Counted from the first letter of the stretch, positions 608-37,549 are shown. The stretch: 38,149 bases of DNA from an uncultured Gammaproteobacteria bacterium (GCA_964475575.1 CAYYXD010000002.1:1-38149); one strand, 5' to 3'. Numbers and translations: made by a program. The notes: generated from the letters alone by a model not told the origin.

Positions 608-742
608 TTTGCTTTTTTTATAAAAATAGTTATAATGTAAAAGGACAAGACACTTTCTATATTCTTACGCAAGTTTTTATATTCGTAATAATTTAGATTT
701 AAAAGGTCGGCTTGTTAATTTAATTTGTTTAAGAATATAGTT

Positions 743-6828: not shown

Positions 6829-8766
6829 ATGAAAATTAAAAAACTTCTACCAGGTTCTAGTTTAGGTAAAACTATTTTTATTGTTACGGCTATTGTTTTT
6901 TTAATTTTTATAATTTTCTCCGCTTTATTTTTTTTGAGAATTAAATCAATTTATAGTGATATTTCTTTTGGTCGAAAAAATTTAGATTATGCTTTAACCT
7001 ATATTAGCGAAGGTAATTTTAATAAAGCTAAACAATCAGCTAATCAAGCTACCAAGTATTTTGATTCAGTCGAAGATGATTTATCTAAGCTTCAAAATAA
7101 TTTTTTAATAAAAAATATAAGTTTTTTAAATGATAATTTATCTGATTTTAATTATTTAGCTAAGATAGCTAAAACCCTAAGTGATTCAGCTGATAGATCT
7201 TTAGGATTAGTAAATGAAACCAATAATCTTTTGTCAGGTCAGACAGTTAATAATTTTTCTGAATTATCAATTGATGATAAAATGAAGATATTAAAAAAAC
7301 TATATGAAAGTAGTCCTGAAATGCAGGGGATAAAAGCCAATATTGATTTAAGTTTATTTTATTTAAAAAAGATAGAAAATAATAAATTATTATCTCCATA
7401 TTCTGATTCTATAAAAAACTTAGAAGGGAAGTTAATTGGTGTTTCTGATTCTTTGAGTAAAATAATATCTTTAGCTTCTATTATTCCAGTTTTGACTGGT
7501 TATCCAGAACCAGTATCGTATTTAGTTATTTTACAAAATAGTAATGAACTTCGTCCTACGGGAGGATTTATTGGTACTTATGGAATTATAGAAGTTAAAT
7601 CTGGAGAAATAACTAAACTTCAAACTAATGATGTTTATCATTTAGATATGCCAGCTAGTTTAAACCCTGATTTTAAAGTTGAACCACCGGAAGCCATAAA
7701 GAAATATATTGGAACTGATTCTTGGTATATGCGTGATTCTAATTGGTCACCTGATTGGACAGTAAGTGCTAAAAAAATAGAATGGTTTTATCAACAAGAA
7801 ATGATAGCAGCTGGTCGATCATCAGAAATAATTGATTTTTCTGGAGTTATAGCTATTAATCCTAGAGTTATAACTGATTTATTATATTTCGTCGGTCCAA
7901 TTGAAATTAACGGACAAATCTATAATAAAGATAATTTTATTGAAATTTTACAATATGAAGTGGAGATGGCTTTTAAGAACAAAAATATTTCAGAATGGGA
8001 TAGAAAATCAATTATTAATGATATTTTAGAAGAAATGAAAAATAGATTATATAAATTATCAGCTGATAAATGGTTAGAATTAGGTAATATTTTAAATCAA
8101 AATATTAGTAGAAAAAATATTTTTGTTTATTTAAAAGACGATTATAATCGTCAAACATCTTCTAGTTTAAATTGGGATGGAGAAATAGAAAATGCTCCGC
8201 TTGATTATTTAATGGTAGTAGACGCTAATTTAGCAGCTTTAAAAACAGATCGAGTTATGGCTAAGAGTATTAAATATTATTTAGATCAAGAAGCTGATAA
8301 TAAATTTAAGGTTAGAGTTGAGATAATCTATAAAAATAATGGTTGGATAGATTGGCAAACAACTAGGTATAGAACCTTTACTCGAGTTTATGTTCCGTAT
8401 AATAGTGCTTTTGTTAATGTATCTGGTTTAACTGAAACAGTAAGTTCTTTGATTTATGATAATGAAATTTCTTATCCTAAAACTTATTGGTCCGGTTTTA
8501 TAGTAGTGGAACCTAAGGAAGAGAAAAAGGTTGTTTTTGAATATTATTTACCGACAGATATAAGTGAAGAAATAATTAAGAATAAAAAATATTCTTTATA
8601 TTTGCAAAAACAATCAGGTAATACAGCTGATAAATTTGAAGCTGAATTAAATTTTTATTCAAGTGTTAAATCTTTTAATGGGGAAGGTTCAGTTGAAGTA
8701 AAAAATAAAAAAGTTTTATGGTCTAATTCCTTAGATAAAGATTATAATTTAGAAATAATGTTTTAA
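6829..8766 (+). CDS. DUF4012 domain-containing membrane-anchored protein
   Basis: There is an N-terminal TM (IFIVTAIVFLIFIIFSALFFL). The hallmark block YLVILQNSNELRPTGGFIGTYGIIEVKSGEI matches DUF4012 as I recall it. The family is typically linked to envelope polysaccharide loci. Confidence 0.65.
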   Translation: MKIKKLLPGSSLGKTIFIVTAIVFLIFIIFSALFFLRIKSIYSDISFGRKNLDYALTYISEGNFNKAKQSANQATKYFDSVEDDLSKLQNNFLIKNISFLNDNLSDFNYLAKIAKTLSDSADRSLGLVNETNNLLSGQTVNNFSELSIDDKMKILKKLYESSPEMQGIKANIDLSLFYLKKIENNKLLSPYSDSIKNLEGKLIGVSDSLSKIISLASIIPVLTGYPEPVSYLVILQNSNELRPTGGFIGTYGIIEVKSGEITKLQTNDVYHLDMPASLNPDFKVEPPEAIKKYIGTDSWYMRDSNWSPDWTVSAKKIEWFYQQEMIAAGRSSEIIDFSGVIAINPRVITDLLYFVGPIEINGQIYNKDNFIEILQYEVEMAFKNKNISEWDRKSIINDILEEMKNRLYKLSADKWLELGNILNQNISRKNIFVYLKDDYNRQTSSSLNWDGEIENAPLDYLMVVDANLAALKTDRVMAKSIKYYLDQEADNKFKVRVEIIYKNNGWIDWQTTRYRTFTRVYVPYNSAFVNVSGLTETVSSLIYDNEISYPKTYWSGFIVVEPKEEKKVVFEYYLPTDISEEIIKNKKYSLYLQKQSGNTADKFEAELNFYSSVKSFNGEGSVEVKNKKVLWSNSLDKDYNLEIMF

Positions 8767-34451: not shown

Positions 34452-34496
34452 TAAAAATATCTAAAAAGTGCTTTTTATCTTTATTTGTCAAGGTAC

Positions 34497-34525
34497 TTGA
34501 CATTTTTTTTTAAATATGTTAAAAT
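34497..34525 (+). promoter_or_regulatory. Sigma70-type promoter upstream of the Wzz-like gene
   Basis: TTGACA (34497-34502), a 17-nt spacer, then TAAAAT (34520-34525) with an extended -10 TG at 34517-34518. The -35 box lies inside the palindrome TGTCAAGGTACTTGACA (34486-34502). Confidence 0.55.
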
Positions 34526-34595: not shown

Positions 34596-35414
34596 ATGGA
34601 TTTAATCGGTTTATTAAAACAAAAACGTCAAACAATAATATCAGTTTTTTTAATTTTATTAGTTATAGGTTTACTTTTCTTGTTAACTCAGAATTTTAAA
34701 TATGGAACAAAATCTAAGATATTAGTAATTCAAGAGGGAGCTGGTAAAGTTGATCCTTATTCTGTCTCTCGATCAGTAGAATATTTATCTGATTTATTTT
34801 CTAAAGTTATTTATTCTAATGCTTTTTTTGAATCAGTTATGAACTCTGATTTTGACATTGATAAGAGTTATTTTGGTGAAGACTATAATGATATGATGAA
34901 GAATTGGAAAAAAACAGTTTCTACTAAAACTTTAGAAGATTCTGGAATTATGGTTATTAGTGTTTATCATGAAGATAATTATCAAGCTACTCAAATTGCT
35001 TTAGCCGTTAATCATGTTTTAATCAATGAACATCAAAATTATCATGGTTTAGGCAATTCAGTAAAACTTAGTATTATTGATCAACCAGTAACTTCTAATT
35101 ATCCAATTAAACCAAATTTAGTTTATTATTTTATAGTACTTATTTCAGTTAGTTTATTTATTAGTTTAATATATATTTATCTTTTTCCAGAAAGAAAGTA
35201 TGACATTAATTTTTTTGGAGAACAAAAACCAAAAAAGATAATACTTGAAAAAGAGATTAAACAGAATATTAGTAATAATATATCAAAGGTAGAATTAAAA
35301 AATAAAGCAAGTGAAAATAATAATATAGAAGATGTAGAAATAGAAGATGTAAAAGAAACTATTAACTATAATGAAATAAGAAAATCGGGTGATATCAGTA
35401 ATTTATTTGAGTAA
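34596..35414 (+). CDS. Wzz-like polysaccharide co-polymerase (chain-length determinant) protein
   Basis: N-terminal TM (IISVFLILLVIGLLFLL) and C-proximal TM (LVYYFIVLISVSLFISLIYIYLF) flank a ~130-aa loop, which is the PCP topology. There is no kinase domain. The position next to Wzx/Wzy-type genes supports the call. Confidence 0.55.
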   Translation: MDLIGLLKQKRQTIISVFLILLVIGLLFLLTQNFKYGTKSKILVIQEGAGKVDPYSVSRSVEYLSDLFSKVIYSNAFFESVMNSDFDIDKSYFGEDYNDMMKNWKKTVSTKTLEDSGIMVISVYHEDNYQATQIALAVNHVLINEHQNYHGLGNSVKLSIIDQPVTSNYPIKPNLVYYFIVLISVSLFISLIYIYLFPERKYDINFFGEQKPKKIILEKEIKQNISNNISKVELKNKASENNNIEDVEIEDVKETINYNEIRKSGDISNLFE

Positions 35415-35438
35415 TATTATTTAATTAATAATATAAAA

Positions 35439-35517
35439 GTTCTTTGACAAATATTCCTTCTTAATGATTTATATTTAAAAGGTCTTTAAATAGAGATTTT
35501 TTAAATATAAATCATTA
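35439..35517 (+). promoter_or_regulatory. Conserved 79-nt leader element, copy 1 (long hairpin)
   Basis: Perfect 19-bp inverted repeat at 35462-35480 / 35499-35517 around the spacer GGTCTTTAAATAGAGATT. 73 of 79 nt are identical to 36531-36609. It lies 43 nt upstream of ATG 35560. Confidence 0.5.
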
Positions 35518-35559
35518 AAGTTAAAAAAATTATAAAAAATAACAAGGAGGAAATAAAAA

Positions 35560-36423
35560 ATGTCAAAAATAATGAGAATATTAGTAGTGGTATTATTTGT
35601 ATTATTATGTAATGTCAAAGCTCAGGATGATCCAGAAAGATTTAACATTAGCTATGGGATGCATAATACCATAGGTGACCAAAGGATGTTATCCGGAGGT
35701 GACTCAATCGTCAAGGTTGGATCTGGAGTTAAACACTCCGTTTCCGGTGAAGTCTTCTTAGGTAATCGCATTTATCGACCAGGAATTTATTCCCAATATA
35801 GTAATTCCAATTTTTTGACTCAACAATTTGAAGCTCAAAAATCTTGGAACTTTTCAGTGGGAATTATTTCCCAAATAAACTTGGGACCGGTGGAAGCAAA
35901 AATTTATACAGGTTATTTCCATAAAGATCTAAAAATTTCTGGGTACGATTCTGAATCCAAAAAGTTTTCGGATTCGTCAAAGATTAATGGTCTTGATCTG
36001 GGTGTTAATTTAATTATTGCCCAACAAGATATCAACTTGTTTCCGAAGATTGAACTTTTTGGTAACGGAAAGTTTCAATTCTCGAGAAATATGTCGGGGA
36101 AGATAGTTCCAAAAGGTTATTCTTTTGGAGCTAATGTAGAAATTTATCGAATTTCTTTCTTTGATTATTATATATCTCCTTTTTTGGGAGTATACAAGAT
36201 GGAAGAAATGAGTAGCTATAAGAATTTGATTTATAAACTTGGTGTTTCTCTCAACAATAACATTGTTAGAAGCGATATTGCTAAGGTGGGAGTATTCCTA
36301 TCTTGGAATAATGAAGTTTATAATTACCAAAGTTCTGACTACAATTATTCGGTAAAAAATGCTAATATAGGAATTTTCCTACAATTTAGTCCTACAGGCC
36401 TATTTTCGCAATATGTGAGATAA
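35560..36423 (+). CDS. Secreted beta-strand-rich protein, paralog A (OMP-like beta-barrel candidate, unknown family)
   Basis: Strong SD AAGGAGG at 35544-35550. Signal peptide MSKIMRILVVVLFVLLCNVKA-QD. Alternating hydrophobic/polar strands run throughout. It shares blocks with 36639-37523 (INGLDLGVNL..FPKIELF, FGANVEIYRI..DYYISP). Confidence 0.7.
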   Translation: MSKIMRILVVVLFVLLCNVKAQDDPERFNISYGMHNTIGDQRMLSGGDSIVKVGSGVKHSVSGEVFLGNRIYRPGIYSQYSNSNFLTQQFEAQKSWNFSVGIISQINLGPVEAKIYTGYFHKDLKISGYDSESKKFSDSSKINGLDLGVNLIIAQQDINLFPKIELFGNGKFQFSRNMSGKIVPKGYSFGANVEIYRISFFDYYISPFLGVYKMEEMSSYKNLIYKLGVSLNNNIVRSDIAKVGVFLSWNNEVYNYQSSDYNYSVKNANIGIFLQFSPTGLFSQYVR

Positions 36424-36441
36424 ATCTTACATGAAATTTAT

Positions 36442-36480
36442 AAGGATTCTGTTTTTCAATAAAAACTAGAATCCTTTTTT
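36442..36480 (+). terminator. Rho-independent terminator after paralog A
   Basis: AAGGATTCT (36442-36450) pairs with AGAATCCTT (36468-36476). An inner helix GTTTTT/AAAAAC extends the stem. A T-run follows. Confidence 0.8.
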
Positions 36481-36495
36481 ATTTTTGTCAAGGTA

Positions 36496-36524
36496 TTGAC
36501 AAGAATAATCCTTTATGATACAAT
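36496..36524 (+). promoter_or_regulatory. Consensus sigma70-type promoter of paralog B
   Basis: TTGACA (36496-36501), a 17-nt spacer, then TACAAT (36519-36524) with an extended -10 TG at 36516-36517. The -35 box lies inside the palindrome TGTCAAGGTATTGACA (36486-36501). The predicted TSS is near 36531. Confidence 0.65.
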
Positions 36525-36530
36525 GTAAAT

Positions 36531-36609
36531 GTTCTTTAATAAACATTCCTTGCTAATGATTTATATCTAAAAGGTCTTTAAATAGAGATTTTTTAAATAT
36601 AAATCATTA
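36531..36609 (+). promoter_or_regulatory. Conserved 79-nt leader element, copy 2 (long hairpin)
   Basis: The 19-nt arms at 36554-36572 / 36591-36609 have one C-A mismatch. The spacer is identical to copy 1. The element begins at the predicted TSS. Confidence 0.5.
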
Positions 36610-36638
36610 GTTAACAAAATAATCAAAAAAAAGGAATC

Positions 36639-37523
36639 ATGAAAACAAAGACATTAGTAGCATTAGCAATAATATTGACAATTGCAACAACCGTAGAAGG
36701 CGGAAGAAGGTATAATAGTAGAAAAATAAAGACTGGGGAAAGATTCTCTCTGAGTTATGACATTCAGAGCTTGAATATGAAAAGCAGTAAAGATTTAATC
36801 CATCATCTTGATGGAGAGGTGTTCTTTTTACCCACAACTAATAAAGTAAATGTGGGAGCCTTCTTGGAGGGCCATAAAGGAGGAGTGTTCGTAGCTAATA
36901 ATAGTGAAGATCAAAAGTATATATCTTTTGGTCCGAGCTTGAAGTTTCAATCTGAAAAGTTTGAAACTACATTAAAAGCCGGATACTTTCTCCAAAAGAA
37001 AGAGATATTTTACAAAGGTGATGTCATAGAAACCAACAATTTAAATGGTCTTGATCTTGGAGTAAATATCAATTTACTCCAAAACGATTTCAAATTCGTT
37101 CCGAAAATAGAATTATTTGTGGAAACAAAGATTGAATTTAGTAAAAAATACTTTCAATTTAATAATGAAGATGAAGGTATTAATGAAATTAAAAGTATCG
37201 TAACCACAAGTATCTGCAACTATCAATTTGGAGTAAATGTTCATTTGTATAGGATTAATTTAGGAGATTATTATATGTCTCCTATGATCGGACTGGAAAA
37301 ATCCGAATCCTTTACTAGAAAAAACTTATTCCAAATAAAGGCCGGAATGAGTTTAAATAATGGAGTAACAACAAGCAATATTTTTCAAGTTGGAATCTCA
37401 TTATCATTCTATAATAATGGCTACTATCAAACAATTGAGGGTGAAAGCACTATCAGCCCTTGTATGTTTGGAGTGTATATGAAGATCAATCCTTCGGGAT
37501 TTTTTATCCATAGGGTAAAATAA
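36639..37523 (+). CDS. Secreted beta-strand-rich protein, paralog B (OMP-like beta-barrel candidate, unknown family)
   Basis: Signal-like N-terminus MKTKTLVALAIILTIATTVEG. Blocks shared with paralog A include ERFSLSY, DGEVFF, LNGLDLGVNI..VPKIELF, FGVNVHLYRI..DYYMSP, and SLNN...VGISLSF. Confidence 0.7.
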   Translation: MKTKTLVALAIILTIATTVEGGRRYNSRKIKTGERFSLSYDIQSLNMKSSKDLIHHLDGEVFFLPTTNKVNVGAFLEGHKGGVFVANNSEDQKYISFGPSLKFQSEKFETTLKAGYFLQKKEIFYKGDVIETNNLNGLDLGVNINLLQNDFKFVPKIELFVETKIEFSKKYFQFNNEDEGINEIKSIVTTSICNYQFGVNVHLYRINLGDYYMSPMIGLEKSESFTRKNLFQIKAGMSLNNGVTTSNIFQVGISLSFYNNGYYQTIEGESTISPCMFGVYMKINPSGFFIHRVK

Positions 37524-37549
37524 AAGGAATCACAATGATTCCTTTTTTT
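37522..37549. terminator. Bidirectional terminator between paralog B and rpmA
   Basis: AAGGAATC (37524-37531) pairs with GATTCCTT (37537-37544) with a 5-nt loop. T7 follows on the + strand, and a T-rich run follows on the - strand. Confidence 0.75.

Follow-up and report, generated by a model that had tools for sequence, protein, structure and literature searches.

The window analysed here is a stretch of 38,149 nucleotides (nt) from an uncultured Gammaproteobacteria bacterium (GCA_964475575.1 CAYYXD010000002.1:1-38149), a chromosomal region with SecA, RRF, L10/L12, RlmN and a large surface-polysaccharide cluster. Towards its 3' end lie two paralogous genes encoding predicted beta-barrel envelope proteins, and each is preceded by a copy of the same leader, a conserved and structured cis-regulatory RNA that occupies the 5' untranslated region (UTR) on the sense strand between promoter and start codon. 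The leader is a real, previously uncatalogued and narrowly distributed cis-regulatory RNA, confined to this one small family of barrel proteins. Its parts follow each other in the order promoter, 5' box (GUUCUUU), 5' strand of a helix P1, long hairpin P2, A-rich linker, 3' strand of P1 and AUG (Table 1).

Table 1. Features of the two leader-bearing genes; positions are counted from the first nucleotide of the window. SD, Shine-Dalgarno sequence; MFE, minimum free energy; CM, covariance model; bp, base pairs; aa, amino acids.
Feature	Positions	Strand	Details	Basis
Putative promoter, paralog 1	35407..35434	+	TTGAGT-16-TAATAT; weak	Read from sequence
5' box, copy 1	35439..35451	+	GTTCTTTGACAAA; predicted extreme 5' end of mRNA	
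P1 5' strand, copy 1	35454..35461	+	UUCCUUCU; anti-SD, abuts hairpin	MFE fold of full leader
Hairpin P2, copy 1	35462..35517	+	26 bp including 3 G.U, loop AAAU	CM, 92.3 bits
Linker, copy 1	35518..35544	+	A-rich, single-stranded	Unpaired in folds
P1 3' strand, copy 1	35545..35552	+	SD AGGAGGAA, 7 nt before ATG at 35560	
Paralog 1	35560..36423	+	287 aa; signal peptide, predicted transmembrane beta-barrel	
Terminator-like hairpin after paralog 1	36442..36486	+	AAGGATTCT...AGAATCCTT, then T runs; loop longer than the terminator scan permits	Read from sequence
Promoter, paralog 2	36496..36524	+	TTGACA-17-TACAAT, TG upstream of -10	Promoter scan, 11/12 matches
5' box, copy 2	36531..36543	+	GTTCTTTAATAAA	
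P1 5' strand, copy 2	36545..36551	+	AUUCCUU	
Hairpin P2, copy 2	36554..36609	+	26 positions, one C-A mismatch, loop AAAU	CM, 90.5 bits
Linker, copy 2	36610..36630	+	A-rich	Folds
P1 3' strand, copy 2	36631..36637	+	AAGGAAU; weak SD, ends 1 nt before ATG at 36639	
Paralog 2	36639..37523	+	294 aa; same family as paralog 1	
Intrinsic-terminator-like site after paralog 2	37522..37546	+		Terminator scan

The sequence-only reading that preceded this analysis had described a 79-nt leader kept in two copies, at 35439-35517 and 36531-36609. Their alignment is gapless, with 6 substitutions in 79 positions, and the repeat continues to 35430-35539 and 36522-36631 (about 110 nt) with 84% identity. The same reading had proposed a hairpin in each copy and had remarked on the absence of a U-tract, and both statements held: the + strand of either copy folds into a 26-bp hairpin with an AAAU loop, and no U-tract lies 3' of it. 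The fold has an energy of -24.6 kcal/mol in copy 1 (z -7.1) and -20.8 kcal/mol in copy 2 (z -5.6), where one C-A mismatch interrupts the stem; in neither case did any of 200 shuffles equal the observed value. The 26-nt core of the hairpin occurs exactly twice in the window against a chance expectation of 0. Its central 18 nt are not palindromic as DNA and pair as RNA by way of three G.U pairs. A role as intrinsic terminator or attenuator was considered and rejected, the stem being A+U-rich, followed by an A-rich linker in place of a U-tract, and unlisted by the terminator scan.

Hairpin pairs were counted in a sequence-only MAFFT alignment of 20 distinct leaders from the window and its relatives. 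Standard pairs made up 93% of the hairpin cells of this alignment, and when one partner was slid by 1-3 columns as a control, pairing dropped to 41-57% of cells. Changes on both sides were found in 9 of the 26 hairpin pairs (29 cells), giving a score reached in 0 of 500 shuffles, and RNAalifold independently predicted the hairpin with 7 compensatory pairs. One G.U pair is invariant, and the others switch only from G.U to A-U, from C-G to U.G or from U-A to U.G. In 19 of the 20 variants, stability favours the sense hairpin over its antisense counterpart by 4-16 kcal/mol. These sense-only G.U changes and the difference in stability between strands therefore point to a sense RNA rather than a DNA palindrome; CM scores are also about twice as high on the sense strand. 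P2 is 23-30 bp long and near bulge-free in every one of the 20 variants. Its apical stem is invariant in sequence, UUAAAAG(G/A)U(C/U)UUU...AGAG(A/G)UUUUUUAA, and is kept across proteins that are only 24-44% identical, while the basal stem covaries.

Folding of whole leaders revealed the second helix, P1, formed between the SD region and a run of pyrimidines that immediately precedes the hairpin. In copy 1 the duplex of UUCCUUCU with AGGAGGAA has an energy of -9.6 kcal/mol. P1 is present in the MFE fold of all 20 leaders, where it lies against the hairpin, with 0-7 nt left between its end and the AUG; the linker that separates P2 from its 3' strand varies from 5 to 60 nt among relatives. The 5' strand is a pyrimidine-rich stretch of 7-10 nt, and the 3' strand is the SD or, in leaders without one, the 7-11 nt just before the AUG. 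Relatives without an SD retain cognate pairing through other sequences, namely UUUUUUGG:CCAAAAAA, UAUUUUUG:CAAAAAUA, UUCUUUG:CAAAGAA and UUUUUGGGGUU:AACCUUAAAAA. Duplexes between the 5' flank and the region before the AUG average -8.7 kcal/mol for cognate and -4.5 kcal/mol for non-cognate combinations, a value equalled in none of 20,000 permutations. In the models, removal of the 5' flank raises the unpaired probability at -17 to -4 from 0.2-0.65 to 0.54-0.99, and 14 of the 20 leaders then reach an unpaired probability of at least 0.89 at the ribosome-binding site (RBS). With the leader intact, the models show hardly any change in the accessibility of the RBS region between 15 and 55 C. A conserved pairing of an upstream strand with the RBS in the favoured fold is the mark of an SD-sequestering leader, and the predicted folds display it.

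Syntenic loci in metagenomes and metagenome-assembled genomes, designated here by L numbers, bear the leader before both paralogs. The 20 distinct leaders share one layout ahead of proteins that are 19-81% identical to one another, and in L008 (copies 2 and 3), L020, L023, L025, L048, L050 and L051 the same layout is built from other sequence, before proteins 19-44% identical to those of the window. The sequence-only reading had allowed that the element might be a repeat of the miniature inverted-repeat transposable element (MITE) kind if it occurred at many unrelated loci. A degenerate hairpin pattern was scanned over two public collections, one of genome contigs and one of metagenome contigs, and every true match lay directly upstream of a member of the barrel family. 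Several further pattern matches (in Ruminococcus, Bacteroidetes, Rufibacter, Paceibacterota, L024 and others) had neither the basal stem nor the gene context and were taken to be fortuitous. A CM built from 18 leaders and searched over 264 kb of DNA returned known leaders only, recovered the held-out leader of L050 and found no further copy in the window. No Rfam 15 family matched at gathering thresholds across the whole window; with E values up to 10, the region 35380-36700 gave only chance-level miRNA-precursor hairpins of 16-17 bits against thresholds of 72-150. Numerous metagenome contigs stop within leader copy 2 or shortly past it (L012, which ends at 7056 inside it, and L011, L013, L014 and L028); the repetition of the leader is apparently an obstacle to short-read assembly here.

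The earlier suggestion that selection or gene conversion had acted on the leader proved sound on both counts, in view of the compensatory changes, the low divergence of the hairpin and loop variants shared between copies. Compared with L001, L003 and L007, flanking genes of the window are 89-96% identical, with a proportion of synonymous differences (pS) of 0.17-0.35 and a synonymous divergence (dS) of 0.19-0.47. Between these close strains the hairpins are 96-98% identical (2-4% difference), the linker and SD 64-85% (the linker of copy 1, 69-85%) and the spacer between terminator and promoter 66-81%. Changes in the hairpin are about ten-fold fewer than at neutral sites, which therefore indicates purifying selection. 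The alternative that the hairpin is no more conserved than the genome background, where overall nucleotide identity is 90-95%, was dropped after the pS of the flanking genes had been obtained.

Gene conversion homogenises the leader between the two copies. Both copies within a genome carry the same loop, UAUA in L001, AAAUU in L003 and AAAU in the window, and in L003 the copies are nearly identical over 117 nt of leader. Differences between copies within a genome (2 in L001, 2 in L003) do not exceed those between genomes (1-7). The three copies of L008 are unconverted and differ at 23-28 of 86 columns, and all of them fold. The 92% identity between the copies of the window is the joint product of constraint and recent homogenisation. 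The coding regions of the paralogs, compared with L001, L003, L007 and L045, show dS from above 1.1 up to saturation, a ratio of non-synonymous to synonymous divergence (dN/dS) of 0.1-0.3 and nucleotide identities of 56-80%. They are deep alleles, probably exchanged by recombination, and not fast-evolving genes, a pattern of divergence typical of surface proteins whose alleles are exchanged in this way.

The best explanation of these observations, which we regard as about an even proposition, is that the leader is a cis-acting sense RNA that occludes the RBS of mRNAs for predicted beta-barrel envelope proteins. Among the candidates listed by the sequence-only reading were a translational control device and a new cis-regulatory RNA, and the conserved RBS-pairing structure on the sense strand favours both. 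P2 would act as a clamp that holds the two strands of P1 together, so that the RBS region is base-paired, and the leader would set, and probably permit regulation of, translation initiation. A trans-acting factor could read the long duplex and the invariant, G.U-containing apical stem, and RNase III or another double-stranded RNA (dsRNA)-binding protein could open or sever the clamp. Both occlusion in vivo and the participation of such a factor are put forward from the folds and their conservation.

Several points weigh against occlusion as the full account. A hairpin of 26 bp is more than a clamp needs, and occlusion alone explains neither the conserved length nor the invariant apex; a length of at least 23 bp and an apex that the clamp leaves unexplained therefore suggest recognition by RNase III or another dsRNA-binding protein. 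A stably occluded RBS would be odd for genes with near-consensus promoters. Shuffle z-scores of P1 within single sequences are modest (-0.5 to -3.6), because pyrimidine-rich flanks readily pair with purine-rich RBS regions. Copy 1 could be transcribed by read-through from the upstream gene, as its putative promoter is weak (8/12), and the transcription start sites are those predicted from promoter consensus only. The contrast between coding and non-coding conservation is in part due to the unusually deep allelic divergence of the coding regions. There are also exceptions among the relatives. The sequence-only reading expected orthologous loci to carry the leader with compensatory changes; most do, but the distant L044 and L052 have no hairpin, and the GTTCTTT box there runs directly into an A-rich spacer that leads to the start codon. 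The protein of L044 is 63% identical to that of the hairpin-bearing L025. Copy 2 of L007 lacks the P1 5' strand. The module of hairpin and P1 is therefore common but dispensable.

P2 may instead be mainly a substrate of RNase III, whose cleavage would mature or destabilise the mRNA and detach the P1 5' strand; we hold this to be possible though doubtful as the principal function. It is compatible with RBS occlusion, of which it would be the effector step. RNase III requires roughly two helical turns of dsRNA, and the 23-30 continuous pairs in every variant satisfy the usual figure of about 20 bp or more, go beyond what a clamp needs and are almost without bulges. The invariant apical stem with its invariant G.U pair fits a recognised substrate, and an active step that opens P1 is plausible, since no melting of this helix is predicted from 15 to 55 C. 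The enzyme acts on dsRNA with both sequence and structure determinants, and leader-based autoregulation is established for rnc in Escherichia coli (PMC7509114). Against this, the basal duplex and P1 (about 20 bp) would still join the strands after a cut in the middle of the stem, and the lineages without a hairpin express the gene without it. The leader resembles those processed by RNase III (rncO of the rnc operon, pnp, lambda N and adhE) in having a near-perfect dsRNA of more than 20 bp in the 5' UTR, and in adhE and lambda N cleavage by RNase III frees an occluded RBS. It differs from them in showing no homology, in being tied to one protein family of an uncultivated lineage, and in that its cleavage is only a prediction.

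A more speculative and rather improbable extension is that the apical stem serves as docking site for a trans-acting protein of its own, be it RNase III, some other dsRNA-binding protein or the RNA recognition motif (RRM) protein of the window whose 5' UTR holds a 24/27 match to the 5' arm of the hairpin, the leader being the RNA half of a new RNA-protein circuit that couples synthesis of the hypervariable barrels to the state of the envelope, in an AT-rich lineage resembling candidate-phyla-radiation bacteria.

A separate observation concerns window positions 682-708 (+), where a 27-nt sequence, TTCGTAATAATTTAGATTTAAAAGGTC, matches the P1 strand and the 5' arm of the hairpin at 24 of 27 positions (0 expected from shuffles). 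It lies in the 5' UTR of a gene for an RRM-type RNA-binding protein (ATG 743, end 1069); a 3' arm is absent, and the fold is not significant (z -1.1). The stretch could be the remnant of a former copy, or a sequence that the gene for the RNA-binding protein has in common with the leaders for a regulatory reason.

We consider it unlikely that the leader is a 5' stabiliser of the ompA or S-layer type, shielding an abundant envelope mRNA from RNases that depend on the 5' end and exerting no control on translation. The genes do encode predicted outer-membrane-type barrels behind strong promoters, and stem-loops in 5' UTRs stabilise the mRNAs of ompA, recA, vacA and others, the ompA stabiliser acting post-transcriptionally (PMC7509114). 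The E. coli ompA 5' UTR is likewise the structured leader of a beta-barrel envelope mRNA, with a hairpin near the 5' end and structure beside the RBS. The two have no similarity in sequence or by covariance model, however, and the hairpins of ompA are short, have to lie at the extreme 5' end and are not paired with the SD, whereas here a hairpin of 23-30 bp would follow about 13 unpaired nt, and a second helix covers the RBS. With starts predicted from the -10 hexamers, 13-23 nt lie before the hairpin, and a conserved single-stranded 5' box of 13-14 nt comes ahead of any pairing. Emory et al. reportedly found in 1992 that a 5' hairpin gives protection only if no more than a few nt separate it from the 5' end. 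A stabiliser would also leave the covariation of P1 with the region before the AUG unexplained.

It is very improbable that the leader is a functionless selfish palindrome of the MITE or repetitive extragenic palindromic (REP) kind, or the relic of a neutral duplication kept similar by gene conversion alone. Like such repeats it is an AT-rich intergenic palindrome in near-identical copies that apparently breaks assemblies, its copies evolve in concert within genomes, and it has been lost in L044 and L052. Unlike them it occurs only before one gene family, in one orientation and at a fixed position between 5' box and RBS; the two collection scans and the 264-kb CM search found it nowhere else, and the MITE idea was rejected on these grounds. 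It has neither terminal repeats nor target-site duplications, it covaries as a sense RNA with compensatory changes and sense-only G.U pairs, and the three unconverted copies of L008 retain the fold.

A palindromic DNA operator for a dimeric transcription factor, placed just past the start site, is hardly credible either. It would account for the 19-bp perfect inverted repeats, and covariation between the arms is also expected of homodimer half-sites. The idea is contradicted by the G.U covariation, since the changes from G.U to A-U, C-G to U.G and U-A to U.G preserve pairing only in the sense RNA and the central 18 nt pair only as RNA; in addition, the half-site centres are 37 bp apart, and covariation of P1 with the region before the AUG has no rationale at the level of DNA.

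An RNA thermometer, in which P1 would melt with temperature to free the SD, draws on the anti-SD:SD pairing seen in ROSE, fourU and the prfA leader (the SD-occluding stem-loop of prfA is a described example; PMC7509114) and has very little to recommend it, as the modelled profile is flat over the temperatures given above where a thermometer melts across the physiological range, no Rfam thermometer family matched even at E = 10, and the digester and landfill-leachate habitats give no obvious reason for thermosensing. The upstream pyrimidine stretch that pairs with the SD region is common to those elements and to this leader. Here, by contrast, a clamp hairpin of great length and stability, together with an A-rich bulge, connects the strands, and the pairing is predicted to be stable at all these temperatures, is kept in leaders without an SD and has no counterpart in Rfam.

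The leader adds an uncatalogued cis-regulatory RNA motif, with covariation in two helices, to uncultivated bacteria whose post-transcriptional control is almost unstudied, and its presence singles out a very small family of predicted beta-barrel surface proteins as being under tight control. It also provides a clean natural case in which gene conversion has kept a regulatory RNA alike in ancient paralogs, with the unconverted L008 as a control. RBS-occluding leader hairpins are a familiar class and the distribution of this one is narrow, so that it refines known principles rather than changing them.

The proteins of the two paralogs are 31% identical (E 3e-30), in keeping with the earlier estimate of about one-third, and neither matches a Pfam family. 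Word-indexed homologue searches gave only 6-10 proteins; an exhaustive profile search reached distant members and delimited a family of 23 representatives (E <=1e-3) among 1.84 billion cluster representatives. An AlphaFold2 model, for which 10 sequences of the family were used, is all-beta, the signal peptide being followed by long antiparallel strands (predicted local distance difference test (pLDDT) 76, predicted template-modelling score (pTM) 0.70). The best Foldseek matches in the Protein Data Bank (PDB) were 12-stranded autotransporter beta domains, Tsx and FadL, with E values down to 5e-7 and template-modelling (TM) scores of about 0.5, and the family is predicted to form a 12-14-stranded transmembrane beta-barrel. 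Downstream of the family gene or genes, loci that extend far enough on that side have rpmA (L27) and a small ferredoxin gene; the upstream neighbour, where covered, is either Wzz-like or a gene without annotation but comparable in size (263-331 aa). The genome has 25% G+C, at which a gammaproteobacterial affiliation seems doubtful, and its content of a Wzy-TPR fusion, DUF4012 and DUF8128-TrwB resembles that of candidate-phyla-radiation bacteria, which are usually thought to have no outer membrane. Two paralogs in relatives are short. The third paralog of L008 (2551-2844) ends after 97 aa, and the second of L017 (1229-1507) diverges from its L003 counterpart past residue 39, with its stop at 92 aa; both may reflect frameshifts, pseudogenes or errors of assembly in genes that carry the leader.

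The promoter that had been claimed before copy 2 was confirmed in the sequence, and 36531 lies 7 nt past its -10 hexamer; L001, L003, L007, L045, L050 and L051 have the same layout. The hairpin had been expected to lose its meaning if transcription began downstream of it, and the best promoter sits 5' of the hairpin, as does the start predicted from it. The putative promoter of paralog 1 falls under the scan threshold and overlaps the stop codon of the upstream Wzz-like gene. L001, L003 and L007 show 100% identity over the 24 nt of 35415-35438, and the putative promoter presumably serves paralog 1. With its own promoter and terminator-like hairpin for each gene, the locus therefore consists of two separate units of promoter, leader, coding sequence and terminator. 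A promoter inside the leader was also considered and rejected: no acceptable -10 lies at 16-18 nt from the TTGACA of 35444-35449, in place of which other copies have TTAATA, TTAACA or TTAAAA.

The GTTCTTT box stands 5-10 nt 3' of the -10 hexamer, at 35439-35445 and 36531-36537 in the window and likewise in relatives. GTTCYTT is found in 21 of 22 distinct leaders, including those of the hairpin-less L044 (3964-3970) and L052 (18-24); copy 2 of L008, with GTTTAAC, is the sole exception. Possible roles for the box are those of an initial transcribed sequence, of another anti-SD-like stretch or of a binding site. A small palindrome, TGTCAAGGTA(C)TTGACA, at 34486-34502 and 36488-36505 overlaps the -35 element of two strong promoters, those of the Wzz-like gene and of paralog 2. 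At 34486 it is also a terminator-like stem followed by T9, and a similar palindrome, TTGTCAAGATGTTGACAAG, occurs in L045/L046; it may represent a common operator or an overlap of terminator and promoter.

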